Positions 9,764 through 54,947 of a stretch of DNA of 64,000 bases are shown in pieces. Position numbers and translations under genes: made by a program. This DNA comes from Candidatus Latescibacterota bacterium (GTDB lineage Bacteria > Latescibacterota > UBA2968 > GCA-2709665). Numbering within the stretch: the stretch's first letter is position 1; each line of letters opens with the position of its first letter. The notes under the pieces were generated by a model. It ran no database searches. It saw only the letters and a list, made by a program, of their open reading frames with translations, and was not told the DNA's origin. The stretch spans positions 64,001-128,000 of the forward strand of contig CAXXXF010000015.1 of the NCBI GenBank assembly GCA_963667175.2, given 5' to 3'.

Positions 9764-9829
9764 CCTGCCTGCCGCGCGTTGCTTGGCCTGTCTGCCGTTC
9801 CAACGGGACAGGCAGGCGCTGGCAGGCGG
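9764..9829. repeat. Nested CCTGCCTG...CAGGCAGG palindromic elements
   Basis: The 30-bp unit cctgtctgccgttccaacgggacaggcagg (9787-9816) lies inside an outer unit; its reverse complement is at 46131-46160. Confidence 0.8.
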
Positions 9830-18244: not shown

Positions 18245-19222
18245 TTAATCCGTCGGCAGGACGCCGACGTCGTCCCCGCGCCGGTAGGCCAGAGCGTCGT
18301 CGATCATCTTTCGTATGTCGTACCGGGGATTGAACCCCAGCAGCTTACGGGCTTTGCACAGGTCGAATTCGTAGAACGTGGGGTCGCCCCGCGGGACGGC
18401 TTCGATATAGGGGACGTCCAGACGTTCCGAAAGATACGGGACGGCTTCATCCCAGGTGAAGGGCGCGGGCCCGGCGAGCCGGATGATCTCACCCGAAACG
18501 CCCTCCGCGCACATCGCCCGTTGGCAGCCCTGGACGACGTCACGCACGTCAGCGACGTGTTTTTTGTAGGGTCTGCCCTCCGGGTCCCTGAGCACCACCA
18601 GGCGCTCCGTCCCCCGCCACGAGCCCTTGAATTCGGGACGGCCTTTCAATCCGCTCAAGCGGAATTGGGGAAAGGCCAGAATCTCGCCCGCGCCGAAGAC
18701 CATGCAGAACCGAAGCACGACCACGGGCAGCCCGCACGTGAGCCAGTATCCGGTACAGAGTTCTTAGCCGATCGATTTGGACAGCGCGTACCATCCGCGG
18801 CAGCGCCGGGGTGTCCGGTCTTCCCGGATCGGTTCGGCCAATCCCCCCGGGACGTACTTTTCGTAAATGGCGTCGGCGCCCGCGAAAATGAACCGCGGCG
18901 GCGTGTCCTGCGCTCTGGCAGCTTCAAGCATGTTGAACGTGCCGCGCACGTTGATTTCGAAATAGTCCGTTTCGGAAAACGGACCGCCGCCCTGAAAGGC
19001 CGCGCCAAGATGGAAAATCGCCGTGACACCCTTCACGGCTTCCTGAACGTCTGCCGGACTCGTGAGGCTGCCGGAGACGAGCTCCACCCCGAGGCCGTTC
19101 AGCTTGTCGACGCGCGGATCCCGCGGCCAGACCAGGCCGCGTACGGAGTGCCCCCGCTCTACCAGCGCTCTGGCCAGGTTGGCGCCGATCCTGCCCGTGA
19201 TACCGGTGATGAGGATGGACAT
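18245..19222 (-). pseudogene. NAD-dependent epimerase/dehydratase with an in-frame TAA at 18764-18766
   Basis: ITGITGRIG and YALSK; the frame reads SKSIG*ELCTGY and continues in the same frame. Confidence 0.85.
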
Positions 19223-19316
19223 GGAGACCGGATGTGCTGAACAATTGGCGGCGTTACGACACACGCCGATTCGCGCCGATACCCGTTGTGCCTTTTGTGG
19301 CCGAAGACAAGGCGCG

Positions 19317-19532
19317 CCTGTCTGCGTGCCTGCCTGCGCCGAGACGTGCTCGGCAGGCAGGCGGACACGCACAGGCAGGCGACCGCGTCGAATCGGGGAT
19401 TCGGGGAGGAAGCGCCTGCCTGCGCCGCTACGCTTCCCGCGGCAGGCAGGCGCTTCGCTTGGCGCAGGCAGGCAACGCTGTAATTCGGCCGCAAGGGCCG
19501 GACACCTGTCTGCGTGCGAACGCACAGGCAGG
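19317..19532. repeat. Cluster of partly nested CCTG(C/T)CTG...CAGGCAGG palindromes
   Basis: Units at 19317-19379 (inner unit 19329-19361), 19415-19472 and 19505-19532. Confidence 0.85.
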
Positions 19533-19748
19533 CAGCCCGGATGGACTCTTTCAACGGGCTGTTAAGGCTAATTAGCGAATTCATGGCTGAAAATCAAGGG
19601 GAAATGCGAAAGGTTGATTGCGGCATATTTCGCTTGCGGAATCGGTTTTATTTTGGTATTAAACCGATTGCTGCGGCGAATACGACTGAAAGGAATTCCG
19701 GCGATTGACCTGACTGCAGGGATGGAACGCTACTGAGGAGGTTCGACG

Positions 19749-21011
19749 ATGGACAAGCTGGCCATTCTGGGTGGATCGAGGGCGGTGAAGACCGATGCGG
19801 GAGACATGTTCACCTGGCCGATCATTACCGAGGAAGACGAAGAGGCCGCGCTGGAGGTGCTGCGTCGCGGGGCCATGTCCGGAACGGACGTCACGGTGCA
19901 GTTTGAAAAGGAATACGCCGACTGGTTCGGCACGAAATACGCGCTAGCGCACAATACGGGTACGTCTTCCATTCATTCCGCGATGTTCGGTTGCGGCGTG
20001 GGTGTGGGAGATGAAATCATCTGCCAGAGCATGACGTTCTGGGCATCGGTGCTGCAGGCGATGAATCTCGGCGCGACCATCGTCTACGCGGATATCGACC
20101 CGGATACCATCACACTGGACCCGGCCGACGTGGAACGGAAGATCACGGACAGGACGAAGGCGATCGTGGCCGTCCACTATTTCGGCCATCCGACGGATAT
20201 GGATGCAATCATGGAGATCGCCAACGCCCGCGGAATCAAGGTGATTGAAGACGTCTCACACGCGCACGGCGCGGACTACAAGGGTCGATTGACGGGCGGG
20301 ATCGGCCACGTAGGCGCAATGTCCTGCATGGCCGGAAAGTCGTTGGCCATCGGCGAGGCGGGCATGCTGGTTACCGACGACAAGGAGATCTACGAACGCG
20401 CGGTTGCATTCGGCCATTACGAACGGACGGGGCAGATCGAGAATCCCGAGTTGAAGAAGTTCGCCGGCCTGCCTCTGGGAGGGTTCAAATACAGGATGCA
20501 CCAGTTGTCGTCGGCCGTAGGGCGCGTCCAGCTCAGGCATTACAGGGAACGGATGGAGGAAATCGACAGGTCGATGAACCTTTTCTGGGACCTGCTCGAA
20601 GGCGCGCCCGGGCTGCGCCCCCACAGGCCGCCCAAAGATTCAGGCAGCACGATGGGCGGCTGGTACGCCGCGCATGGGATCTACGTGCCCGAGGAACTCG
20701 GAGGGCTGACCCTGAGTTCGTTCTGCGAGGCGGTGCGGGCCGAGGGGACTTCCTGCGGGGCGGGGGCCAATCTGCTGATGCACCTGCATCCCGTACTGAA
20801 CGAGGCCGACGTCTACGGCCACGGCGAACCCACGCGGGTCGCGCATTCCGACGCCGACGTACGCCAGGGCGAGGGGAGCCTGCCGCAGACGGAGCGGATG
20901 TCGAAGCGCCTGTTTTCCATCCCGTGGTTCAAACACTATCGCCCGGAAGTCATCAGGGAACATGCGGAGGCATTCCGAAAGGTGGTGACGCAGGCCGGGG
21001 AACTTCAGTAG
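19749..21011 (+). CDS. DegT/DnrJ/EryC1/StrS aminotransferase
   Basis: IEDVSHAHG, SCMAGKSLAIGEAG (Lys retained); GAGGAGG RBS. Confidence 0.88.
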   Translation: MDKLAILGGSRAVKTDAGDMFTWPIITEEDEEAALEVLRRGAMSGTDVTVQFEKEYADWFGTKYALAHNTGTSSIHSAMFGCGVGVGDEIICQSMTFWASVLQAMNLGATIVYADIDPDTITLDPADVERKITDRTKAIVAVHYFGHPTDMDAIMEIANARGIKVIEDVSHAHGADYKGRLTGGIGHVGAMSCMAGKSLAIGEAGMLVTDDKEIYERAVAFGHYERTGQIENPELKKFAGLPLGGFKYRMHQLSSAVGRVQLRHYRERMEEIDRSMNLFWDLLEGAPGLRPHRPPKDSGSTMGGWYAAHGIYVPEELGGLTLSSFCEAVRAEGTSCGAGANLLMHLHPVLNEADVYGHGEPTRVAHSDADVRQGEGSLPQTERMSKRLFSIPWFKHYRPEVIREHAEAFRKVVTQAGELQ

Positions 21012-21280
21012 CGGCGGGTTGCGCGCAGGGATGTACGCGCCCGACACGGTACGGGATCTGCAATGGGCGGCCGACAAGACGTCGGCCGCCCTGTTGGTTT
21101 GCGGAAGCGTCCGCCGCGCGCCGGGGCCAACCGAGAATAAGACCAGCCCGAAACACCGCGGGGGATTGAATTCGACCACCACTCTTGTTATATTGCTAAT
21201 TCGGCGGCCGCGAGGATTTCGCGGTCAAAGCCCGGTAACTTTCACTGGTTCGATCGGATTCACAACAGGGAGACTCATCC

Positions 21281-24196
21281 ATGCATCCGTCGCGATTCGC
21301 GCCGTCCGCAGTTTTTCTCGTCGCCGTTCTCTGCAGTCTGGTATCCAGCCTCGATGCCGCGTACACTCGTATCCACGAACCCGGTTCCGACGATCCGATG
21401 GCGGTACATATCTTTCGTCTGGACAACGGACTAAGCGTCTATCTCACCGAAAACCATCAGACGCCTCGCTTTTACGCGGAAATCATCGTACGGGCGGGCA
21501 GCAAACACGATCCGGCCGAATCCACCGGTCTGGCGCACTACCTGGAGCATATGTTGTTCAAGGGCACCCAACACATCGGCTCGCTGGACTACGAAAAGGA
21601 AAAAGCGCATCTCGACCGTATCACCAGTCTCTATGAGGAGCACTTCAGGGAAACAGACCCGGAAAAGCGGAAAGCCATCTACGCCGAGATCAACAAGGAG
21701 TCCCAGCTTGCGGCCGCGTATGCCATACCAAACGAGATAGACAAGCTCTACAAGGCCATGGGCGGCACCGGGCTGAACGCGCACACCTGGCACGAAGAGA
21801 CGGTCTACAGGATCAATCTGCCAGCCAACCGGTTGCGCCACTGGGCCGTGATCGAATCCGAACGCTTCCGAAACGCCGTCTTCCGGCTGTTTCAGTCCGA
21901 ACTCGAGACCGTCTACGAAGAAAAAAACCGGTCGATGGACAACAAGGACCGGATCATCAGTTACGCGGTTGCCGATCTGCTTTACAAGAAACATCCCTAC
22001 GGCCAGCAGACCACGATCGGAAAAGTGGAACACCTGAAGAATCCGTCGCTGAAAAACATGTACTGGTTTTACAATACCTATTACGTGCCTAACAATATGG
22101 CGATCGCGATCTCGGGGGACATCCGGATCGACGATACGATCAAGCTCATCGACCGGCATTTCTCCGGATGGCGCAAGGGTACCCTTCCTCAACTGCCCGA
22201 TTGGAAGGAAGCGCCGCTCAACGGCGTCGAACGGGCGAGCGTCAAGTACCAGGGAGAAGAGTTCGCGCTTCTGGCATTCCGGACCGCATCGCGAAACCAC
22301 CAGGACGCGGATGCGCTCAAACTCCTGGATATGATCCTGGACAACGCCACGGCCGGACTGATCAACCTCAACCTGAACCAGAAACAACGGGTACGCAGGG
22401 CCGGATCGTACCCCACCCTGTACAACGACCACGGCGCCCAGTATCTGTGGGGCATTCCCAAGAAAGACCAAACACTGGAGGAACTTGAACAACTGCTCCT
22501 GGATCAGCTTGAAATCGTCAAGAGCGGGGGTTTCGAAGACTGGATTCTGCCCGCCATCGTCACCGACTTCAAGAAGCACGAAAAGAGGGAAATGGAATCG
22601 GACAATGCCCGGGTGCGCCGGATGCGGAATTCATTTCTTTCCCACCAGGACTGGAACCATACCGCGGGTGAGATCGCCCGTCTTGAAAAGGTCACCAAAG
22701 AAGACGTCGTCCGCGTCGCTCGGAAATACTTCGCGGACAACTACGTTGCCGGCTACCGGGTGGATGAACAGCACGAAATCCCCAGGATTCAGAAACCGCA
22801 GATCGACAGGATCGATATCGACGCCACACGGCAGTCCGTTTTTGCCGGCAACGTACTGTCGATGCCCGCGGAAGAAATCGAGCCGACGTTTGTCGATCCG
22901 GACAAGGACTACCGGATCGCGGAATACCACGACGGCGTCCGGCTCTACTATTCCCGCAACCCGATCAACGATCTCTTTACGCTCAGCTTTACGGTGGACC
23001 TTGGGAACAACCAGAACAACAGGATGGGTGTTGCCGCCCGCTTGATCGACAAGTCGGGTACCGGACGCCACACCTCCGAAGCCCTCAAGAAGGAGTGGTA
23101 CAAACTCGGCACTGAATTCTCCCTGTCGGCGGGGAACAACGAAACCACCGTGACCATAGCGGGCCTCGACGAGAACTTCGATGCCTCGCTGGAGCTGATG
23201 GCTGAGCTTGTGAACAACCCGTCGGCCGACAAGGCGACACTCGAACAGCTTGTCGGCATCATCCTCGGGGAGCGAGAAGACACGAAAAAAAATCACCGAA
23301 CCATTCAGGGCGGCGTTGTCCTGAACAACAGATACGGCAAAGAGTCTCGCTACCTGCGCATGCTGCCCAACGAAGCGTTGCGGGAACTTTCGGTGGAGGA
23401 ACTGCATGGATTGGCGCGACGCCTGTTCGAGTACAAGCACACGATCGCGTATACCGGTTCTCTTCCCCTTGAACAGGTGATGGCGGCGCTGAAGAAAACC
23501 CATCGGGTCTCAGGTGAACTGGATGACCCGCCGCCGTACCGGTTCTATAAGGCGAGGACGCCCGACAAGACCGAAATCCGCTTTTTTGACAAATCCCTCG
23601 CCCAGGCGCTCGTCTACATCGAATTCGGCGACGTGGATTACAGCGAGGCGTCCGTTCCCGAGACGGAACTCTACAACAGCTATTTCGGCGGCGGGATGAG
23701 CGGCATCGTCTTCCAGGAACTGCGGGAAGCCCGCGCGCTGGCCTACTCGGCCTGGGCGCGGTACTTCAACGGCAACCGGAAGGGAGACCAGAACCTCCTG
23801 GCGGGATCCATCGCCTGCCAGCCCGACAAGACGATCGAAGCCGTCGAAGCGTTTATCGACCTGATCGACAACATGCCGGTCACACCCGAGCGATTTGAAG
23901 AAGCCCGCGCCTCCATTCTGAACAGATACCGCACCAGCAAAATCGGCTTTCGACGGGTCCTGGGATCCGTTCGTTCCTGGGAACGTCTGGGCGTTCCCGT
24001 GGATCCCCGAAAGTCGCGATTCGAGAGAATCCAGGCCGCGGAAATGGACGACATGCTGGGGTTTTACGGGAAGAACCTGAAGAACCGCGTCAAGCTGATT
24101 TCCATCGTCGGGGACAAAAACAAAATCGACCTCGCGGCGCTCGAGAAATTCGGAACGGTCAGCGAGGTCGGGCTCGAGGACATCTTTGTGTTTTAA
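21281..24196 (+). CDS. Exported M16 (insulinase/pitrilysin) zinc peptidase
   Basis: Signal peptide; GLAHYLEH inverted zinc motif; LREARALAYS. Confidence 0.92.
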   Translation: MHPSRFAPSAVFLVAVLCSLVSSLDAAYTRIHEPGSDDPMAVHIFRLDNGLSVYLTENHQTPRFYAEIIVRAGSKHDPAESTGLAHYLEHMLFKGTQHIGSLDYEKEKAHLDRITSLYEEHFRETDPEKRKAIYAEINKESQLAAAYAIPNEIDKLYKAMGGTGLNAHTWHEETVYRINLPANRLRHWAVIESERFRNAVFRLFQSELETVYEEKNRSMDNKDRIISYAVADLLYKKHPYGQQTTIGKVEHLKNPSLKNMYWFYNTYYVPNNMAIAISGDIRIDDTIKLIDRHFSGWRKGTLPQLPDWKEAPLNGVERASVKYQGEEFALLAFRTASRNHQDADALKLLDMILDNATAGLINLNLNQKQRVRRAGSYPTLYNDHGAQYLWGIPKKDQTLEELEQLLLDQLEIVKSGGFEDWILPAIVTDFKKHEKREMESDNARVRRMRNSFLSHQDWNHTAGEIARLEKVTKEDVVRVARKYFADNYVAGYRVDEQHEIPRIQKPQIDRIDIDATRQSVFAGNVLSMPAEEIEPTFVDPDKDYRIAEYHDGVRLYYSRNPINDLFTLSFTVDLGNNQNNRMGVAARLIDKSGTGRHTSEALKKEWYKLGTEFSLSAGNNETTVTIAGLDENFDASLELMAELVNNPSADKATLEQLVGIILGEREDTKKNHRTIQGGVVLNNRYGKESRYLRMLPNEALRELSVEELHGLARRLFEYKHTIAYTGSLPLEQVMAALKKTHRVSGELDDPPPYRFYKARTPDKTEIRFFDKSLAQALVYIEFGDVDYSEASVPETELYNSYFGGGMSGIVFQELREARALAYSAWARYFNGNRKGDQNLLAGSIACQPDKTIEAVEAFIDLIDNMPVTPERFEEARASILNRYRTSKIGFRRVLGSVRSWERLGVPVDPRKSRFERIQAAEMDDMLGFYGKNLKNRVKLISIVGDKNKIDLAALEKFGTVSEVGLEDIFVF

Positions 24197-24409
24197 CCGG
24201 CGCGGCAGATCGTCATTCGCAAGACGTGCCGGTCACACGTGCCTCAACCCTGTCTGTCATACCGACGAAGTCGTTGTGAAGGTGGGGCAGACGTGCCTGT
24301 CTGCCGACGCGCGCCTGATCTGTCATCCTGTGGAAGCCTGCAGACTGACGAAGCGCGTCCTGCCGCGCCGGACAGTGCCTGCACCCTCTCGCAAGCTGTA
24401 TATTCGTCC

Positions 24410-24437
24410 TTGACAAGCGTTGAAAACGGGATATTAT
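24410..24437 (+). promoter_or_regulatory. Putative sigma70 promoter
   Basis: TTGACA-N16-TATTAT upstream of the ORF at 24467. Confidence 0.45.
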
Positions 24438-24466
24438 TTCAGCAAACTACACCGGCGGAGTATGCC

Positions 24467-24682
24467 ATGATAGGGAAAATCTTCAGCGCCGATAACGTCC
24501 GCATGGCCATCTTCCTGTTCACCCTGATCGGCGCCATGTGGACGCTTACAAACAGACTCGAAGACAAAATGGACGCACGCTTTGACAAGATCGAATCCCG
24601 TCTGGATCGGATCGACACCCGTCTGGATTCCTTCGGCGAACGTATTGCCAAAAACGAAGCACGTTTAGACGCCTCTGAGTAA
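24467..24682 (+). CDS. Small single-TM coiled-coil protein
   Basis: GGAG RBS, hydrophobic helix, heptads RFDKIESRLDRIDTRLD. Confidence 0.65.
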   Translation: MIGKIFSADNVRMAIFLFTLIGAMWTLTNRLEDKMDARFDKIESRLDRIDTRLDSFGERIAKNEARLDASE

Positions 24683-24786
24683 GCCCCTCCAACGCGTACC
24701 GCTCCCTCTGTCGAATCACCACCTGCCACGCCGTACGATGTGTGAGCGGCGAACCATGAGCCCGCTCTGACCGGCAGAACATCGCC

Positions 24787-24895
24787 ATCACTCCCCCCTT
24801 GAGGGGGAGTCGCCTGCCTGCGCCAAGCGGAGCGCCTGCCTGCCGCGGGAAGCGCAGCGGCGCAGGCAGGCGGCAGGCAGGCGGAAGCCGAGCCG
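24787..24895 (+). repeat. CACTCCCCCCTTGAGGGGGAGTCG REP-like element carrying a 69-bp nested palindrome
   Basis: The insert 24813-24881 is identical to 44345-44413; related host repeats at about 34395, 44320 and 48106. Confidence 0.85.
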
Positions 24896-24905
24896 GCGCC
24901 TCCCG

Positions 24906-26132
24906 TTACGAATCCCATCCCGCTATGAAATCCGACGTCGTGTAACCCTCCGGCATCTCGTTGAAGTGATATTTCATCGGGCCTGACTGAAATCCCGGTT
25001 CGAAGTGCTCCGCATCCGATCGAAGCCGCTTGTCGAGCGGTTCGAACCGTTTCCACAACGTCTCCGCCTCTGAATCGTCGAACCGCTCCGCGAACGCCGG
25101 ACCCCAGTTGAGCGTAATCGGATGGGCCCCGCCGCGGAGCCGGCGGGACAGGTCTTCCGGAACGTCGGGATACGGGGCGTTCTTCGCCAGCCGGATCGCC
25201 AATGCGGCCTTGCACAGGAAGACGGTGGAGAGCATCTTTCCCTTTTCGCCACGGCCCGGATGAAGCCGGTTCAACCCCTCGGTGTAACTCTCCCCGTCGC
25301 ATTCGATAACCGCCTTGAGCGCTTCCTCCGTGTGGCTTTTCATCTCCAGGCTCCGCTGATTCCAGCGCTCGAACGCGGCTGCCGTTCCCTTCGAAAGGTG
25401 TTCCGCGAAAGAGAGATCGTCAATCGACGTGTGGATGGAAAACCCGCCGTGTATGGTCCGTCTCAACCTGGGGCTGTAATTGCTGCCCCAGTGGAGAAGC
25501 GGGAGGATGTACACAACGCCGTCTCCCGATTCGAGGCGGGTCCGGACGCCGTTCGGCAACGGCTGGCACGGGTCGGCCAGCATCAGTTCGTTTTCCTGCC
25601 TCGTGTTGAAACGGACGTGGCTGCCGGGTATCACCACCAGGACGTTGTCGTCGTAAAGCGGTACGTTCCATTGGACGTAGCGGGGTCCCCCTTCGAGGAC
25701 GTCGTCGATATATCCCTGGAGGGGGGCGGTGTCGATCGGGTGGTGGTCGCGATGCCACTTCGCGGGGCCGTGGTCCCGAACCGGATTGCACATCATCATC
25801 ATTTCGGTTACCGCCGCGTCTGCAACGCCCAGTAGCCGGGAGCTGATGCCCTGGAGGTTCGGCGTCAGCCACGCCTCGACCGCGGGCGCGGTCTCTTCAT
25901 CGATCCCCCGGATCAGCGGCGGCCGGTTAAGCATCAGGCGGGGTTGCGGGCTGGTCTCCCACTCGCCTCCCGGCGGGTCGCCTTCCTTTCGCATGGCCCT
26001 CCAGTTTTCGCGCTGGCGGTTCACCAGCGTTTCGTAGGCCCGGCGAACTACCTGCAGCTTCTCCCGCGGAATGGCTTCCTTGACCACAAGGTAGCCCTCT
26101 TCCAGGAATCGATCGCGGTCGACCGGTTGCAT
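24906..26132 (-). CDS. Phytanoyl-CoA dioxygenase (PhyH) family Fe/2OG enzyme
   Basis: FLEEGYLVV, WHRD, IPGSH, LLHWG. Confidence 0.82.
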   Translation of the reverse strand: MQPVDRDRFLEEGYLVVKEAIPREKLQVVRRAYETLVNRQRENWRAMRKEGDPPGGEWETSPQPRLMLNRPPLIRGIDEETAPAVEAWLTPNLQGISSRLLGVADAAVTEMMMMCNPVRDHGPAKWHRDHHPIDTAPLQGYIDDVLEGGPRYVQWNVPLYDDNVLVVIPGSHVRFNTRQENELMLADPCQPLPNGVRTRLESGDGVVYILPLLHWGSNYSPRLRRTIHGGFSIHTSIDDLSFAEHLSKGTAAAFERWNQRSLEMKSHTEEALKAVIECDGESYTEGLNRLHPGRGEKGKMLSTVFLCKAALAIRLAKNAPYPDVPEDLSRRLRGGAHPITLNWGPAFAERFDDSEAETLWKRFEPLDKRLRSDAEHFEPGFQSGPMKYHFNEMPEGYTTSDFIAGWDS

Positions 26133-26734
26133 GACGTTCCCTCCAGGTGTGGCTCAGTGTTGTGTCACAGAAACAGGTTGCATGAATTCAGCAGGAGAAA
26201 TGCAGCGATCAGCACTCAGCCATCAGCAGTCAGCTTGAACCGAAATCTAAGATCAAGTTCAAAATCCCCTTTTCCCAAAATTCCCTGCCATCGAAAAACA
26301 GCTATCAGCGGTCGGCGTTCAGCCGTCAGCGAAAATCAAAAACAAAAATCAGCTCACACAAAGACACGAAGACACAAAGAGAGACAGAGCGTTCAGCCGA
26401 GAGCGAACCACCCTCAGCCCCGCAAACCTCTCCCCCCGGCCTGCCTGCGCCGAGTTCTGCTCGGCAGGCAGGCGCCGTTCTTTTTGGTCCTTTTTCTTGG
26501 GCGTACAAGAAAAAGGACGAAGAGAAAATGAGAGTTGGTGGAAGAGATAAAGCCTTTGTCCCCCAGGAGGTTAGTTCCAAAGGGAGTTGTGACCGACAAC
26601 AGGCGACCTGAGCAAGGTCGGCCGGCGATGGCACATAGACAAGCCACTGCGGCAAGCTCAGTGCAAGCAGCGCGAGCAACGCCGTGAGAAGGGATGAATC
26701 GTCGGCCGAATGGCGAGGTACGTTTGGACCCGGA

Positions 26735-27619
26735 CTACGCCCCGATAAACGTCTCGGACCATTTCGGTTCGTAGTTGCTCTCGAAGAGCCAGTCGAAGTC
26801 TTCGGGAACGATGTGCGCCCGATCGGGGCGCAGTTTTTCCCTCAGACGGGGAAAGAAATCCATCAGGGAGTCCCGTTGGCCTTTCGGGAGTCCGCAGGAA
26901 ACGCCCGTGGCGGCCCATGCCGAAAGCATCGCCTTTCGGGGCACGGTATCCTCGTTCTGCCACGCCGAATGCAGTCCGGAACTGCATAGAATCAGCATCT
27001 GTCCTCGACGGGCAACCATAGGCGCCGGCTTCTGATCCAGCCAGGGCACGTCGGTCAGGTCGGGCACATGCTCAGGATAGGACCCCGTGCCTTCGGCCGG
27101 ACTCGGACGCACCCCGTGAACGCGAGGCAGCATCGCCTTGTGCTCCTGCGTGAGGACGCGGCTCCAGTATTCCATGATGGGGCGGTGGCTTCCGGGCAGT
27201 ACGCGCATCGCCCCCCGATGCTCCGGCACGTCGTTCAGCCAGAACCACAGCTCCGCGCGCATCCTGCGGGGCGTCGCCTGGAAGTCGTCCCACGTGGCCT
27301 GGACGTCGGTGTGGCATCCGCTTGCCCACTGGTCGCGGACGCTCCCGAAAGGCGCCTTGGCCGGGTGACGGCCGTGGGGCGACACGCCCCACCAGAGATG
27401 CGCGGCATCCGCCCGCAACAGTTTCCTTGCCACTTCCTCGAAGTAGGGATGCTGGAAGACGTCCAGATAGTCGGGGTCCTCGTAGGGCGGCCGGCCGCTC
27501 GCTGTCAGCCGGTCCCACGCGGCTTCCGCCCGGTCGAGCTCCGCGGTCGTGAACGGGCTGTCGATCGTGACGGCGCCAAGCTCCTCGTATTGTCTCATTT
27601 CCGCGTCGGTCAGTGCCAT
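26735..27619 (-). CDS. PhyH-family Fe/2OG dioxygenase
   Basis: HTD, WLNDV, LPGSH, LHSAWQN. Confidence 0.82.
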   Translation of the reverse strand: MALTDAEMRQYEELGAVTIDSPFTTAELDRAEAAWDRLTASGRPPYEDPDYLDVFQHPYFEEVARKLLRADAAHLWWGVSPHGRHPAKAPFGSVRDQWASGCHTDVQATWDDFQATPRRMRAELWFWLNDVPEHRGAMRVLPGSHRPIMEYWSRVLTQEHKAMLPRVHGVRPSPAEGTGSYPEHVPDLTDVPWLDQKPAPMVARRGQMLILCSSGLHSAWQNEDTVPRKAMLSAWAATGVSCGLPKGQRDSLMDFFPRLREKLRPDRAHIVPEDFDWLFESNYEPKWSETFIGA

Positions 27620-44225: not shown

Positions 44226-44600
44226 TGTAGGGGCGGGTCGAATAGTGCTACAATACATTGCGATCGTTCCACCATCCTGAGGCGTTCGACTCTGCCACTG
44301 TCGCACTTTCACGTCGCAATCACTCCCCCCTTGAGGGGGAGTCGCCTGCCTGCGCCAAGCGGAGCGCCTGCCTGCCGCGGGAAGCGCAGCGGCGCAGGCA
44401 GGCGGCAGGCAGGCAGAAGCCGAGCCGGTCCCAGAGGCTGCGGTCCCTGAGCTTGTCGAAGGGGCCGACGACGGCTGATGCGGTGGGGGGATTGTGCTCT
44501 TTACCGTATGCAATCCAGGTCCTGGATGCTAGTCATTTCGCAACTGGAATTGCAAAAGACCCCGAAATGATCGCTTATCGGAGTCTCCCATAGAGCAACG
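44226..44600 (+). repeat. Composite repeat unit 2, with a nested palindrome at 44345-44413
   Basis: GTAGGGGCGG, CACTCCCCCCTTGAGGGGGAGTCG, GTCCCTGAGCTTGTCGAAGGG, GATGCGGTGGGGGG. Confidence 0.78.
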
Positions 44601-46114: not shown

Positions 46115-46470
46115 GTGGGGCCTGCCTGCGCCTGCCTGTCCCGTTGGAACGGCAGACAGGCCAAGCGGAGCGCCTGCCGCGGGAAGCGCAGCGGCGCAGG
46201 CAGGCGGCAGGCAGGCAGACATTCCTGTCTGCCTGCCTTACCGGTTCTTACTGTCATGAAGCCGACTGAAACAACGCTCCCGTCGCAAAATGAGTCCACA
46301 GACTCCGCGCTGATCCGTTGAACACCGTCATCGCCAGGACCGACGCGCGGTTCCTGTTGTAGGGGCGGTTCGCGAACCGCCCTTGCTCAAGCCGGTCTCA
46401 GAGCTTGTCGAAGGGGCGGGCGACGGTGGTGGGGGGTTTCAATGGCTTACCGAATGCAATCAGGGTCTCG
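46115..46470 (+). repeat. Multiply nested palindrome (46121-46215) inside a GTGGGG|CAGACATTCCTGTCTGCC REP, followed by composite repeat unit 3
   Basis: An uninterrupted host REP is at 24282-24305; GTAGGGGCGGTTCGCGAACCGCCC at about 46359; GAGCTTGTCGAAGGGG. Confidence 0.78.
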
Positions 46471-50730: not shown

Positions 50731-51392
50731 TCTTAGAAAAAACTGTCTCAAGTACAACAAGCCCAGGGTTCGAAAACCCTGGGCGATTTCATTTCCGGCG
50801 GCGCAATTCGCACCAAATCTCCCTCTGACGATCTTAAATCGCCACATTTGTGATCGGTAGCCTCGCAAACTTCGTGAGCCGAGTAGGGTGTATCAAGGAC
50901 GGACCAACCCGAGACCAAGAAGCCTACGTTCATTATTTCTCAGGGTCTTGTCGTCACGGTAACTCTTTGCTCCTCAACGTCTATCCATCCTCCAAAACCC
51001 CCGCCACCCGCTTTATGACCAGTGGGAGATCCTTTTTCTTCAACAGGAAGCCCCAAGGCTTACTGCTCCGCTGACGATTATACTGCAACATTAAGACCAC
51101 GATTTCTGGCTGATCTTCCAAAACAACCAGCTGTACATCCTCTACGACTAGTTCATCGGTATTCCCGCGCCGCCGACATTGTTGCTTAAATTCAAACGAG
51201 TTCAAAACGGCCCCCTATGTGACGATGTTTGGTAGCGGTGGCAGTATAACGAAAAACGCCTTTCGGATCAAAGGCGGCTTTTGTTGGCGGATAAATACCA
51301 TAATACATCACCACCCGCGCTGTACACCTATCCCTAAAGCGCGCTGACAAGCCTTATGTACTACTACGCTTACCTTATTGTCAATTGCTGGC

Positions 51393-52890
51393 GGGAATGT
51401 ACCTATCTTAGTTGAAATAGAAGAGGCTCCGATGTAAATTGGATACGGTAGTCTGGATAAGAATTACTGTATCCTCATACGAAAGGAGCCTGTAATGAGC
51501 AAGGTATCATCGAAGTCTCGTGAAGTCAAGTTGAACACGGAAGGTGGAGTGAGGTCCAGGGCGGTCCCCCGAGGTACTCTGGAGGATGTTGACGTCCGTG
51601 TGGCCTTGATCCAGTCGCTGATCCCTCTGGGTCTGGCCGCCGTGGAAGAAATCTTGCAGAACGAGGTCGCCGCGTTGACGGGCAAGAGATACAGTCGCAA
51701 AACGTGTAAGACCCGGAATCGCCGGTGGGGCACGCAACGGGGATCGGTGTATCTATCGGACCAGAAAGTGCCCGTGGCGGTGCCGAGGGTGCGCGACGTG
51801 GTAGCCAATGAGGAGGTATCTCTCGAGGCGTATCGCCGCTTGCAGCGCCCCAGAGACATGGACGAAGGGTTGCTGCTGCGCGTCCTGGGCGGCCTCGCCA
51901 CGCGTTCCTACGCCGGTTGCGCAGAGGCGGTACCCGAGGCGTTTGGCTTGTCTTCGTCGACGGTCTCGAAGCGGTTCATCAAGGCATCAGCGGCCAAGCT
52001 CAGGCAGTTTCAAGAACGGTCGCTTGCCGGCTATGACCTGGTGGGGCTGTTTATGGATGGCAAGACCTTTGCCGATCAGCAGATGATCATCGCCCTTGGC
52101 GTGACCATCGACGGACACAAGGTCCCGCTGGGGTTCGTGCAGGCCGCCAGTGAAAATGAGCGCGTGTGCCGTCAGTTTGTCAATTCGCTCATCGATCGCG
52201 GACTGCAGTATCACCAGGGGCTGCTGTGCCTCATCGACGGCTCGAAGGGATTGCGGTCCGCGGCTCACCAAGGCCCTCTCCGGATACGTCGCCATACAAC
52301 GCTGTCAGCCTGCCTGCCGAGCATCCGGCGCAGGCAGGTGGCACAAACGGGAAAACGTGATCGCCTATCTGTCCAAATCACAGCAGGATGAGGTCAGAAA
52401 GGCCCTCCACGATGCTTACAACAAGGAGACCTACAACGACGCCAAAGCCGCACTGCAGGCCCTCAAACCCTCCCTGGCGCTGAGGAATGCAGCGGCACTG
52501 AACAGCCTCGAGGAAGGGCTCGAAGAAACCCTCACCCTGCATCGGCTGGGGCTCATGCCACAGCTCAAACAATCGTTCCGCACCACCAACTGTATCGAAT
52601 CCCTCAACGCCATGGTCGCTCAGCGCACACGAAACGTAAAGCGATGGAACAACTCCGATCAGCGATATCGGCCTGCCTGCCGGCAGGCAGGTGGTTGGCA
52701 GCCGCGCTGCTAGACATCGAGCCGCGACTGCGCCTGCCTGCAGCAGGCAGGGAGAATCAAAGGATACCGATTTCTTCCCGTACTCAGACTTGCCCTACAA
52801 AAACACCTCAACCTCGATCATGACGCGCAAGAGGCTTTCGCCGCCGACTAAGCGCCTCTCCTTTTTCAACTAAAAATAGTACTTGCCCCC
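51393..52890 (+). mobile_element. IS256-family element with an 8-bp target duplication TTGCTGGC
   Basis: IRs GGGAATGTACCTATCTTAGTTGAAA / TTTCAACTAAAAATAGTACTTGCCCCC; duplication at 51385-51392 and 52891-52898. Confidence 0.9.
51495..52851 (+). pseudogene. IS256 transposase disrupted by a +1 frameshift near 52263 and three palindromic micro-insertions
   Basis: FMDG, LIDGSKGL, QRCQ[ins]WHK, RTTNCIESLN. Confidence 0.88.
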
Positions 52891-52931
52891 TTGCTGGCCG
52901 TAGGCAAGCGCAGTTACGCAGGATTCTGACT

Positions 52932-54047
52932 TCACGACTGCGTCAGCAGCAGGTCCCATGGGATCGGTGCTTCCGTACCGGTTATATTCAGATAATATTC
53001 CTCTACGTAACTGACGTCGTCGTCGGCCCCTTTTCGTTTCAATTCCGCGTCCATGTTGACCTCGACTTCGTATGACAATCCCGCAATCCCTCCCTCGTCA
53101 ATGAGCACTCGGGCTGCCTTGGCCAGCAGTGACGCCCTTTCGGTGTTGACCATCGCTAGAATTGCATCTCCACCCACATTCTCTTCAAAGTAACGCCAAC
53201 GGTCGAAGACGTGCCTCCCTTCCTCCAGCACTTCCTCGATCTCCGAGAAGTCCGCAATCAAACGCGTTTTGCAATCTTCAGGTAGTTCTTCGTACAGGCC
53301 CAAAAGGTCGTGAGTTTTTTTCGCTTCGTCTTGGCGTGTGACTAAAATAGCCTTCAATGCCAACTCGCAGGCAAAGGCGACGGTCATTCCCGATATCATT
53401 ATTAGACCCATTCGCTCCATCATCACACGTTCTGCCGATTGCGGGTTTCGATGTGGTGCCTTTGCTGATACACGAAAATCGGAACCGTCGTTTTCTACTT
53501 CGATGTCGGAAATGCCGGGTGTCTCGAAGTCGTAATCCGGGTATTGGATAACCCGCTTTTCGAAGGGAAGACTCGCGGTCCCAGCCATAAAAGTATAGGC
53601 CTGAAGATACAGGTAACCGGCCGTCCCTCTTGGAAAGTCGTGTCGACTAATCGTCTTCTTCTTACGCCCCTCGGCTAATTTCGCATTGTACCGTCTGTCG
53701 AAATATGCCGTGTCACGATCCATTTCAGGAAAGACCTTGAGCACGAACTTCGCATCCTCGCGATACTTCGCGGCTAGACCCCGACGTGCTGAAGGCAGAT
53801 TCTCAACCATCTCACGGCACATTTTTTCCATCTCGCGAATTGCATCATCTCCTTCGACTGATTTCCCGCACACCCGGCACTTAATCTCAGTCCACCGCTC
53901 TCCCGCACCTAGCTGTCCGACCAATCGACCCCAACAATTCATGCAGCGTCCCTTAATCACTGCCGAGGCCGCCTCGCCTGCACGATGATCGTGAAAGTCC
54001 AACCGCCATCCGATCTCGACTGCTACGGTGTCTGCTTTCTGATCCAT
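52932..54047 (-). CDS. Zn-ribbon + HEPN-domain protein
   Basis: CMNC..CRVC; AFACELALKA, THDL, WRY. Confidence 0.7.
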   Translation of the reverse strand: MDQKADTVAVEIGWRLDFHDHRAGEAASAVIKGRCMNCWGRLVGQLGAGERWTEIKCRVCGKSVEGDDAIREMEKMCREMVENLPSARRGLAAKYREDAKFVLKVFPEMDRDTAYFDRRYNAKLAEGRKKKTISRHDFPRGTAGYLYLQAYTFMAGTASLPFEKRVIQYPDYDFETPGISDIEVENDGSDFRVSAKAPHRNPQSAERVMMERMGLIMISGMTVAFACELALKAILVTRQDEAKKTHDLLGLYEELPEDCKTRLIADFSEIEEVLEEGRHVFDRWRYFEENVGGDAILAMVNTERASLLAKAARVLIDEGGIAGLSYEVEVNMDAELKRKGADDDVSYVEEYYLNITGTEAPIPWDLLLTQS

Positions 54048-54167
54048 GATCTTCCCCAAAATTCAATGTGTTACACTATGCTCTTTCTGACAGCGTCTCG
54101 TTCCATGTCCCCTTCAGGTGTCGTTCTCGCCCGACTCCGACAGAAACTGCGTTCCCTTGTTTGTTGT

Positions 54168-54947
54168 TGTCACGGATTGCCCCAATCAGGCCACCTTTGA
54201 TCGGCGTACTGGAGCCGAGACCATGCCGGCACCATCACAAAGGGCCACGTCGCGATGGTCTGGTGCGTGAAGACGTCCACGATCGTTGGACCACGCCCAA
54301 AGTCCACCTTGTCAATGATCGGTGTAAAGGCACCACGTCGCCCGGATCGAAGTCCAACACGGTTGTGACGTCGGGATGCGCGTCTTTGAGCTGCTGGAGA
54401 AAACGACGGATGGAAGAATACGAGCCGGCATAGCCGTAGGTGTCCACCAACGCCTGGCGGATGATTGTGTCACGGAAACCCTGACAGCATCAGGCCGTGA
54501 CCTTGTCCTCGCAGGGTGGGACCGACGACACCGACTGAGGCCGCGAGGAAGCAGCCTGTAGAACCTGGGCAAGGGTCGCATCATCAGGCAGCACGCGAGA
54601 AGCATCCAGCCATCTCTCACGGCCTGCCACGTCACGTGGCGCCTGCCTGTGCGTGTACGCACGTAGACAAGCACTGGCCTTCTCGCGACCCATCAACACT
54701 CCACGGGCGATCGCACGGTACGACTCGCCTAGCCGCAAACATCTCAATACCTGGCAATGCTCACACACCTCGAACATCCGGTTTGCGATGTTCTTCCCTC
54801 CTGACTGTCGGGGAGACACTTAGAAGGTAGAAACGTTGCCGGATAGTCCGAAACCTATATCGCATCCCAGGTGGCCGCATTAGGCCGATCTTCAACTGGC
54901 CTCATTATGCCGATCCCGCATTGTCCGCATATTGGCGATCATTAACA
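54168..54947 (-). mobile_element. Internally deleted IS21-family element (istA remnant)
   Basis: TGTTAATGATCG end with repeated GATCGGC..AATG.GGCCA boxes; RLGESYRAIAR, GSYSSIRRFL, QVDFG, AWSRLQYA. Confidence 0.8.

Follow-up and report, generated by a model that had tools for sequence, protein, structure and literature searches.

A miniature palindromic element family in a Latescibacterota genome, probably mobilised in trans, and its relatives in many bacterial phyla

Background

Very small palindromic or hairpin-forming repeats have been described in several bacteria and organelles. The small dispersed repeats (SDRs) of heterocyst-forming cyanobacteria, which Elhai and colleagues reported in 2008, are said to be ~20-30 bases long, to insert into copies of themselves, and to lie in mini-transposons and short tandem repeats; SDR families reportedly share a structure that is kept by compensatory changes, one family is said to sit inside a palindromic octamer, and all are said to be confined to one cyanobacterial subgroup. 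We know of no enzyme that moves SDRs. Rickettsia palindromic elements (RPEs) are ~100-150 bp long, genus-specific and inserted in frame in protein-coding genes, and the GC clusters of yeast mitochondria are very small GC-rich hairpins. Repetitive extragenic palindromes (REPs) are paired with the REP-associated tyrosine transposases (RAYTs), and Ton-Hoang and colleagues reportedly found in 2012 that a single REP, an imperfect hairpin tagged with GTAG, is cleaved to its left and to its right by the Escherichia coli RAYT. Here we analyse a family of palindromes of 16-36 bp, bounded by the arms CCTGYCTG and CAGRCAGG, that came to attention in a 64,000-nucleotide stretch (the window) of a Candidatus Latescibacterota bacterium. 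A first-pass annotation of the window proposed an ultra-short, non-autonomous family that inserts without duplicating its target, and the empty paralogous and orthologous alleles and nested self-insertions described below bear this out.

The likeness to REPs and to REPINs (inverted REP doublets), as these are described in PMC3733652, PMC8266576 and PMC3116915, extends to many properties: short GC-rich palindromes in tens to hundreds of copies, mostly extragenic, sometimes in genes and found in mosaics, with a bulged imperfect hairpin, no target duplication, and patchy abundance among relatives. The usual description of a REP as a high-copy, mainly extragenic sequence of 20-40 bp fits a family with 325 pattern matches at 275 loci in 5.5 Mb. 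According to the abstract of PMC8266576, REPs are processed by RAYT as folded single strands, and a bulge and a 5' motif are required. Di Nocera et al. 2013 (PMC3733652) place REPs inside palindromes and genes and include one super-family without a dedicated transposase; the main text of that paper contains none of our arm words.

Other systems share fewer features. IS200/IS605-type elements, including palindrome-associated transposable elements (PATEs), also insert without target duplication, but in our family only the base before the element (-1) is constrained, with no fixed 4-5 base word in one orientation, and the whole unit is one hairpin of 16-36 bases rather than a body with separate subterminal hairpins. 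DDE-type miniature inverted-repeat transposable elements (MITEs) have terminal inverted repeats, a short non-coding body and a non-autonomous mode of life in common with the family; in contrast, we see no target-site duplication beyond one or two ambiguous G residues and no parent insertion sequence (IS) with the same termini. Compared by description only, SDRs resemble the family in nesting within themselves and within mini-transposons and in keeping structure by compensatory change, whereas the palindromes analysed here occur in at least a dozen phyla. RPEs, which PMC3733652 mentions, are likewise palindromes in frame in genes that stay open, but our units measure 16-36 bp and the frame is lost at many insertions. 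Finally, the yeast GC clusters and the repetitive hairpin-forming elements of sponge mitochondria (PMC2800124) are tiny GC-rich hairpins that invade genes and intergenic DNA and have no known enzyme; this likeness, again one of description only, is to another compartment and other hosts.

Results and discussion

Insertions in an IS256-like gene and a second IS remnant

The window contains an IS256-like transposase gene interrupted by stretches of 30, 20 and 19 bp (Table 1), each of which starts with CCTGCCTG and ends with CAGGCAGG. We aligned the eight near-full IS256-like copies of the source genome (G000; 5.52 Mb, 18 contigs, ~59-60% G+C). The 30 bp stretch is present in two of them, the window copy and C15:605585-607119, and absent from the other six; the 20 bp and 19 bp stretches are each found in the window copy only and are missing from the remaining seven. 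Junctions are exact, CA(G)/30/(G)TGG, TC(GG)/20/(GG)TGG and GC(G)/19/(G)GAG, where slashes mark the insertion point here and below: one or two G residues can be assigned to either side, and nothing longer is duplicated. With six or seven of the eight paralogues empty, the three clean insertions without duplication that the first-pass annotation had described are therefore upheld. It had also described a 30 bp relative interrupting an istA remnant. This too is an insertion, absent from all three paralogues of that second multicopy element (site GCG/C), but the istA label, and with it an IS21 identity, is unconfirmed, as the 109-aa fragment has no NCBIfam match.

The IS256-like host gene scores above the Pfam cut-off for Transposase_mut. 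Its NCBIfam transpos_IS256 score of 115.7 bits lies below the cut-off of 150, as expected because the window copy is broken. Two additional 1-base insertions, together with an identity of only ~90% to most other copies, indicate that this copy is decaying; because one of the two precedes the start of the open reading frame (ORF) at 51495, only the other need shift the frame.

Public sequencing runs, none of which contains more than 0.37 of the sampled words, gave further alleles in the form of assembled contigs; as the best runs may include the source sample, we treat these as supporting evidence only. One contig of run X1 lacks all three IS256-like stretches, contigs of run X2 carry the 30-mer, and one contig of run X5 keeps the 20-mer and lacks the 30-mer, which shows that the elements went in on separate occasions. 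In one X1 contig, window position 52670 is joined to 52732, with 10 bases common to both sides; this deletion between the 20-mer and the 19-mer suggests recombination of neighbouring elements.

We give almost no credence to the idea that the stretches are native to these genes, or are assembly or adapter artefacts. Public-run contigs do break at the elements, as they would at any repeat. Against this, empty paralogues and orthologues exist, the same insertions recur in independent contigs of the public runs (with the reservation just made), and both cultured isolates and single-contig genomes carry the family.

Filled and empty alleles and the target site

For counts of filled and empty alleles across G000 we accepted only clean junctions, each verified as an exact string. 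There are 32 distinct sites with a clean empty paralogue (120 loci, similar flanks collapsed). Ten hot-spot junctions in larger repeats each have 3-33 empty and 3-27 filled copies; among them are AAGGCGCG/CGACCGAC (33 empty, 10 filled), GGAGGGAGCG/CAACGCCG (19 and 27), GGGGGAGTCG/CAGAAGCC (21 and 13) and the loop of the GAGGGCAGGA/TGCCCTCG hairpin (8 and 9). One and the same site can be occupied, in different repeat copies, by different family members. What is added is the whole palindrome and nothing else, with no target duplication beyond the ambiguous purine. That these are insertions rather than precise deletions is argued from parsimony, since the majority of paralogues and orthologues are empty and the elements in the filled copies differ.

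At the 32 two-state sites, the base at -1 is G in 29 and that at +1 is C in 24, and the commonest step is CG/CG. A logo of 96 oriented, non-redundant flanks gave G at -1 in 83% and C at +1 in 92%, and 61 unoriented non-redundant flanks gave G at -1 in 70%; conservation ends at the arms. The alignment of alleles and the target logo, both of which had been proposed as checks, agree on the preference for a G/C step. The earlier statement that almost all copies follow a G holds for G000 but not everywhere. In the cultured strain Thiorhodospira sibirica ATCC 700588, the -1 base is A in 87% of 30 loci, and flanks taken across phyla show a weak purine/pyrimidine preference (-1 A 39%, G 36%; +1 C 52%, T 25%). 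From the G of G000 and the A of T. sibirica we conclude that the target is a purine/pyrimidine step with a lineage-specific preference.

These junctions also bear on the possibility that host replication or repair made the copies, through template switching at hairpins or the capture of duplexes at blunt breaks, for example at CG/CG, with no dedicated transposition. Junctions share 1-3 bases of microhomology with the element end, the preferred G000 target is the palindromic CG/CG, and many targets are hairpin loops or palindromes, as such a process might favour. We nevertheless think it very improbable, since every filled/empty pair examined has exact ends, 8-base arms would not stay conserved across phyla under a sequence-blind process, and copy number runs from 0 to 293 within one genus.

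Anatomy and nesting

In the window, CCTGYCTG-N0-30-CAGRCAGG has 13 matches with 0 expected, and none of 100 shuffles equalled this number; the motif is present at every one of the further positions listed by the first-pass annotation. Allowing gaps of 0-70 bases between CCTGYCTG and CAGRCAGG, we found 325 overlapping matches in G000, representing 125 distinct sequences and 275 merged loci. Each unit has two fixed 8-base arms that enclose a short centre, which varies; in the longer forms this centre makes a second small hairpin, set off by a bulge of two bases. The commonest forms include a 19-mer (8 + 3 + 8; 35 copies, both orientations counted). A subfamily whose left arm contains a T supplies a 28-mer and a 30-mer, and also common are a 20-mer that is perfectly palindromic and many 33-mers (8 + CG + 5 + 5 + 5 + 8).

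We stripped simple elements from the genome in silico and recovered 302 elements at successive levels of 270, 31 and 1. In 32 cases, removal of the inner element restored a two-armed element of the family type (26-43 bp), and many of the 32 are identical to variants found alone. Long centres are therefore nested insertions: the fixed ends of the first description stand, and its centre of up to about 50 bp is replaced by elements within elements.

Both flanks are repeated elsewhere at 178 of the 275 loci and unique at 44. The G000 elements lie largely within mosaics made of other hairpin families and are found also between paralogous transporter genes. One recurrent setting (C17:85060-85310, C15:553350-553600, C15:789360-789600, C18:42660-42940 and C2:289230-290560) has the form ACATGGATGGA-element-ATGRRCAGGATAAA, after which come AC/GA-rich short tandem repeats; in one instance it lies within a methylase/specificity (S) gene.

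The smallest units are informative as to what the family requires. The 20-mer predominates in a Bacteroidales metagenome-assembled genome (MAG), and an 18-mer occurs six times in a 0.8 Mb Patescibacteria MAG. Because forms of 18-20 bp are multicopy at unrelated sites, the two arms alone seem to be enough for mobility.

As a control we used the reversed pattern. It has 0-2 matches elsewhere and 55 in G122, a genome of the same class as G000, which must therefore carry an unrelated palindrome family with the arms GGACRGAC/GTCYGTCC.

Selection on the folded hairpin

For an analysis of covariation we assembled 67 distinct 33-mers from many genomes, selected solely on their arms and on a G at position 10 that gives the orientation, a criterion that excluded 23 of 114 loci. 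Across the inner five pairs there are 23 cells with changes on both sides and 15 further pair types; none of 500 shuffles reached the observed values, and all slid registers scored lower. The arms and position 10, on which the set was chosen, are alone invariant. A Bacteroidota subfamily has, on our reading of the alignment, a shifted register with a compensatory change of its own, and the T subfamily has a G-T wobble in the outer arm. The covariation of the inner helix means that the folded single strand is under selection. As a DNA duplex needs no such complementarity, the hairpin must matter as single-stranded DNA or as RNA.

An RNA route, in which a small hairpin RNA is reverse-transcribed and integrated, as has been proposed for cyanobacterial SDRs, is thus to be considered. 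It would account for selection on a single-stranded hairpin and for the G-T/U wobble tolerated in both helices; nesting and embedding in mini-transposons resemble the SDR description, and the genome encodes a group II intron reverse transcriptase. We judge it quite unlikely all the same: the ends are exact, with no sign of poly-A, a primer or a template, the copies can be explained without a promoter, and wobble is equally tolerated in DNA hairpins. No RNA run was listed among the public runs that contain the locus.

Distribution across relatives, phyla and viruses

Among 41 relatives, copy number varied from 0 to 293; within one genus the counts are 0, 2, 2, 3, 4, 8, 16, 22, 22, 66, 89, 106, 139, 258 and 293. 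A phylum-wide scan of 168 genomes found large populations in nine only and no new high-copy lineage.

To look beyond the phylum, we scanned one genome per prokaryotic species for the arms with a 15-base gap. This yielded at least 114 loci, and the range that they cover is a lower bound. Among the matches listed, the canonical architecture, with no fewer than 4 of the 5 inner pairs, is seen in 62 of 114; two recognisable subfamilies account for ~25 others, and the rest look like chance. The record titles of the matches listed include MAGs of Verrucomicrobiota, Latescibacterota, Methylomirabilota, Desulfobacterota, Bacteroidota, Kiritimatiellota, Planctomycetota, Lentisphaerota, Patescibacteria, Acidobacteriota, Ignavibacteriota, Omnitrophota, Elusimicrobiota, Nitrospirota and Chloroflexota, as well as two cultured strains; no cyanobacterial record is present in 80 titles among them. 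Loci that share flanks with G000 come from Latescibacterota MAGs.

All ten distant genomes that we tested are multicopy (6-53 copies), with no match to the reversed control pattern: T. sibirica ATCC 700588 (53), a Methylomirabilota MAG (33), a Lentisphaerae MAG (32), a Desulfarculaceae MAG (28), the Bacteroidales MAG (21), the 0.8 Mb Patescibacteria MAG (14), a Nitrospira MAG (14), Pelomicrobium sp. G1 (12), a Verrucomicrobiota MAG (8) and an Acidobacteria MAG (6). The same subfamilies recur in them, namely T-arm 27-30-mers, 18-20-mers and nested forms, and some 33-mers are identical between phyla. In T. sibirica one identical 33-mer makes up most copies; of 30 loci inspected there, 9 are inside another copy and 10 in the loop of one larger repeat. 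Many carriers are MAGs, and the two cultured strains and several single-contig genomes also carry the family. With a stricter pattern (one orientation, G at position 10), we found 22 loci in the viral contigs of IMG/VR, and the inner helix is complementary in 13 of these. The family is therefore not private to G000 but common to many phyla and to viral contigs, spanning Latescibacterota-like genomes, Gammaproteobacteria, Bacteroidota, Desulfobacterota, Methylomirabilota, Lentisphaerota, Patescibacteria, Nitrospirota, Acidobacteriota and Verrucomicrobiota.

We asked whether the family had been described before. Rfam gave no match at E values up to 1 for window positions 19000-27000, which hold 7 of the 13 pattern matches of the window, and a literature search by sequence words and by topic returned no description of these arms, which the figures or supplements of REP surveys could nonetheless list. 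The family is apparently undescribed. Its behaviour is like that of REPs and SDRs; its conservation across phyla and its minimal unit of 16-20 bp are unusual.

Insertions in ordinary genes

The first-pass annotation remarked that, in the window, coding insertions fall only in mobile genes, and raised purifying selection or an effect against mobile elements as possible reasons. Because a screen of stop-free frames is noisy at 60% GC, we kept only coding insertions backed by Pfam or by orthologues. Genome-wide, the restriction to mobile genes is untrue. In G000, a 21 bp element lies between the N-terminal and ATPase domains of a type I restriction HsdR protein, and further elements are present in an N6-methylase/specificity fusion, two TPR proteins and a heparinase-like protein. 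The 21-mer is absent from 8 of 10 orthologous hsdR loci, including the closest (85% identity). At the same site, GACGA/CGGCAG, a relative of another genus has a different 21-mer in the same orientation; either the site is a hot spot that was hit on two occasions or the allele was transferred.

Of the 275 loci, 14 are in long multicopy repeats of 400 bp or more, and the fraction of the genome that these repeats occupy predicts 10.0. Targeting of mobile genes is thus not indicated, and the proposed effect against mobile elements finds no support in these counts or in the genes just named; insertions in mobile genes are simply easy to see and tolerated. One such multicopy element, present at C4:188348-190096 and in about 11 further copies, encodes a 583-aa protein, and its C4 copy contains two family elements. 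The protein has no Pfam or NCBIfam match and is presumably an undescribed or divergent transposase. Taken together, the targets of the family are unique genes, IS elements, the loops of other hairpin repeats, and its own copies.

Search for the mobilising enzyme

The first-pass annotation suggested mobilisation in trans by a Y1/HUH enzyme of the RAYT or IS200/IS605 kind and proposed a search for such a gene flanked by the same palindrome. G000 has three Y1_Tnp matches. One is an intact RAYT (C3:192505-193107; NF047646 100.8 bits, cut-off 80) whose locus, next to a 1196-aa ORF, is syntenic in five genomes of the genus. Its flanks hold inverted GAGGGCA...TGCCCTC doublets (REPINs) and no element of the palindrome family. 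Across C3:191300-194600 and the syntenic loci, this REP is genus-specific and the RAYT single-copy. In relative G016, the two GAGGGCA...TGCCCTC hairpins that hug the RAYT gene are the only copies in the genome, and elsewhere this repeat numbers 7-29 in genomes rich in our family and up to 127 in poor ones.

The other two Y1 genes are a paralogous pair below the NCBIfam cut-off (C7:59528-60124 and C7:62896-63492; 199 aa, 92% identical, NF047646 44 bits). Each has a hairpin, GGGGCAGGTTTCAAACCTGCCCC, within its coding sequence (...GAGLKPAPT...) and another just upstream, and about 27 hairpins of this type are present in G000. As a mover, the C7-type gene was rejected: it is present in G008, which has 0 copies of the family, and was not found in G009, which has 258. 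Nor do PF01797 counts predict abundance: a genome with 32 IS200-type matches has 3 elements, and one with 75 has a single element.

The most developed alternative is that we are dealing with an ordinary REP/REPIN population whose cognate enzyme is the C3 RAYT of the genus, which would cut and join the single-stranded hairpins. The RAYT is bona fide, and orthologues of at least 77% identity are present in 6 of 9 relatives with at least 66 copies and in none of the 32 that have no more than 24; one such contrast, G016 versus G020, is found in another genus. These relatives do not amount to independent samples, however, and the association is confounded by relatedness. The loop of the REP that belongs to this RAYT is a frequent site of family elements (9 filled, 8 empty), and in G009 a 33-mer sits in such a loop directly after the RAYT stop codon. 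In the mosaic repeat of Table 1, two insertion sites flank a GTAG-tagged imperfect hairpin, the kind that the E. coli RAYT reportedly cuts. Other evidence speaks against an ordinary REP population. The arrangement typical of REPs, a RAYT gene flanked by its own REP (the REPtron), is absent: with the sole exception of the G009 loop, no family element lies within ~1.5 kb of the RAYT-like genes inspected, which comprise three genes of G000, 12 loci from five distant genomes and the one RAYT that T. sibirica has. All of these are flanked by other hairpins, as is the G016 gene. High copy numbers are reached without a RAYT orthologue in G006 (139, a fragmented assembly), G015 (248, one contig) and G024 (133, one contig). 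Distant carriers have no close orthologue; the five distant genomes hold only homologues of 23-38% identity or, in one case, none. The family has no GTAG or CGTC tag of the kind that marks the REP super-families of Di Nocera et al. 2013, and it moves as singlets, seen in the IS256-like gene, the second IS remnant and hsdR, and not as inverted doublets. Moreover, REPs are usually lineage-specific, whereas these arms are common to phyla and units of 16-20 bp are multicopy. On balance we regard an ordinary REP population as unlikely.

Two further observations concern RAYT-related genes. Stop-free frames of 800-1441 aa with a second RAYT-like domain, 44-47% identical to the G000 RAYT, lie 1.5-14 kb from the RAYT in four relatives (L197 2998-7320, L198 16927-19998, L199 356-4015, L200 11366-14974 and 17106-19499). 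No such frame was seen in G000. The frames may represent fusions or may be open by chance because G+C is high. The Patescibacteria MAG (G043, 0.8 Mb; L130, L135, L138, L140 and others) has eleven Y1_Tnp matches, which is unusual for a small genome.

We also searched for a partner by position. No long element with the same termini is present in G000: for pairs 300-6000 bp apart, the best has 5 of 8 further complementary bases, a result that fits mobilisation in trans. Repeats of G000 bounded by half-sites are all ISs carrying insertions. No partner recurs between close element pairs, which enclose ordinary genes, genes of ISs, a single RAYT-like gene and a group II intron reverse transcriptase. 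The last of these is a reverse transcriptase/maturase ORF of 463 aa at C4:141900-145800. IS200/IS605 elements are biased in orientation relative to GC skew; oriented copies of our family have no bias relative to local GC skew (69/67 versus 42/26), as measured in an 18-contig assembly with elements that are nearly symmetric.

We consider it probable that this is a miniature palindromic mobile family of 16-36 bp, non-autonomous and moved in trans by an arm- and structure-specific enzyme. Several findings weigh against this reading. Since most copies lie inside larger repeats, many spread by hitch-hiking, and independent insertions number far fewer than 300. Short forms could in part be deletion derivatives of 33-mers, and the target is merely a purine/pyrimidine step. 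The missing RAYT flanks, the three high-copy relatives without a RAYT orthologue, the divergence of distant RAYTs and the lack of skew bias, all described above, belong here as well. Finally, searches by flank, between pairs and by co-occurrence pinned down no mobilising enzyme. Of the original proposal, mobilisation in trans thus fits, and a RAYT or other Y1/HUH enzyme as the mover is not established, the co-occurrence of RAYT being the one positive result, with its three exceptions. Because the RAYT signature is missing, we hold a Y1/HUH enzyme of the RAYT/IS200 kind as the leading candidate at somewhat under an even chance, and an enzyme of another kind about equally likely.

In outline, the arms, folded on single-stranded DNA, would be recognised by an enzyme acting in trans, which would cleave 3' of the left-flank purine and 3' of the terminal CAGG; the cut hairpin would then be joined into an equivalently cut target step. 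Such a reaction is characteristic of Y1/HUH enzymes. The element junctions and the target all share a G/Y (or A/Y) step, which fits a single cleavage specificity. Spread between phyla may have been by horizontal transfer, possibly on phages. We go further only tentatively: the family may be pan-bacterial, defined only by its two 8-base arms, borne in part by phages, and moved by a conserved hairpin-specific enzyme not yet linked to it, whether RAYT-like and acting on hairpins that do not flank its gene, or of a new kind. This wider proposal we hold to be possible, if rather less than an even prospect.

Features of the window

Features of the window are collected in Table 1, including a 375-aa ORF between the IS256-like copy and the second IS remnant.

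Table 1. Palindromic elements and associated features in the 64-kb window
Position	Strand	Feature	Evidence or remark
9764-9816		Composite: 30-mer (9787-9816) nested in decayed 33-mer-like element	Pattern match
19317-19379		30-mer with 33-mer (19329-19361) nested after base 12; first insertion site of ~200 bp mosaic repeat	Removal of inner element gives canonical 30-mer; host site genome-wide 33 empty, 10 filled
19415-19472		36-mer (19415-19450) abutting truncated 33-mer; second insertion site of mosaic repeat	Site GGAGGGAGCG/CAACGCCG
19505-19532		28-mer of T-variant subfamily; third insertion site of mosaic repeat	
24813-24881		33-mer with nested 36-mer (24835-24870), beside ACTCCCCC...GGGGGAGT hairpin	Host site GGGGGAGTCG/CAGAAGCC
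26440-26472		Canonical 33-mer (8 + CG + 5 + 5 + 5 + 8)	
44345-44413		Second copy of nested 33-mer/36-mer composite; inner element 44367-44402	
46121-46231		Cluster of nested and abutting elements, 6 half-sites	
51386-52895	+	Degenerate IS256-like copy, host of the 30, 20 and 19 bp insertions	Pfam Transposase_mut; paralogue alignment
52309-52338		30 bp element in IS256-like transposase gene	In frame, adds 10 residues; QRCQ/PACRASGAGR/WHK
52672-52691		20 bp perfect palindrome (8 + CCGG + 8) in IS256-like gene	Frame shifted
52733-52751		19 bp element (8 + CAG + 8) in IS256-like gene	Frame shifted
52932-54059	-	375-aa ORF	CxxC...CxxC motif
54642-54671		Decayed 30 bp element, 2 substitutions from canonical 30-mer, in remnant of second multicopy element	Absent from 3 of 3 paralogues

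Conclusions

REP-like repeats are usually seen as lineage-specific and tied to a flanking RAYT, and the palindrome family departs from this picture. It may be among the smallest mobile DNAs known. Its elements break assemblies, make in-frame insertions of 6-12 residues in real proteins, and inactivate IS copies, and its filled and empty alleles are plentiful enough for the chemistry of insertion to be read from genomes. Because T. sibirica ATCC 700588 is cultured and has 53 copies, mostly of one identical 33-mer, the question of mobility can be approached experimentally. If the enzyme is found, it would define a minimal substrate of DNA strand transfer, and a very small programmable insertion tag might follow. 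If the pan-bacterial proposal is true, the family would be the smallest self-contained mobile DNA unit known, and one that edits proteins in frame, including those encoded by restriction-modification genes.

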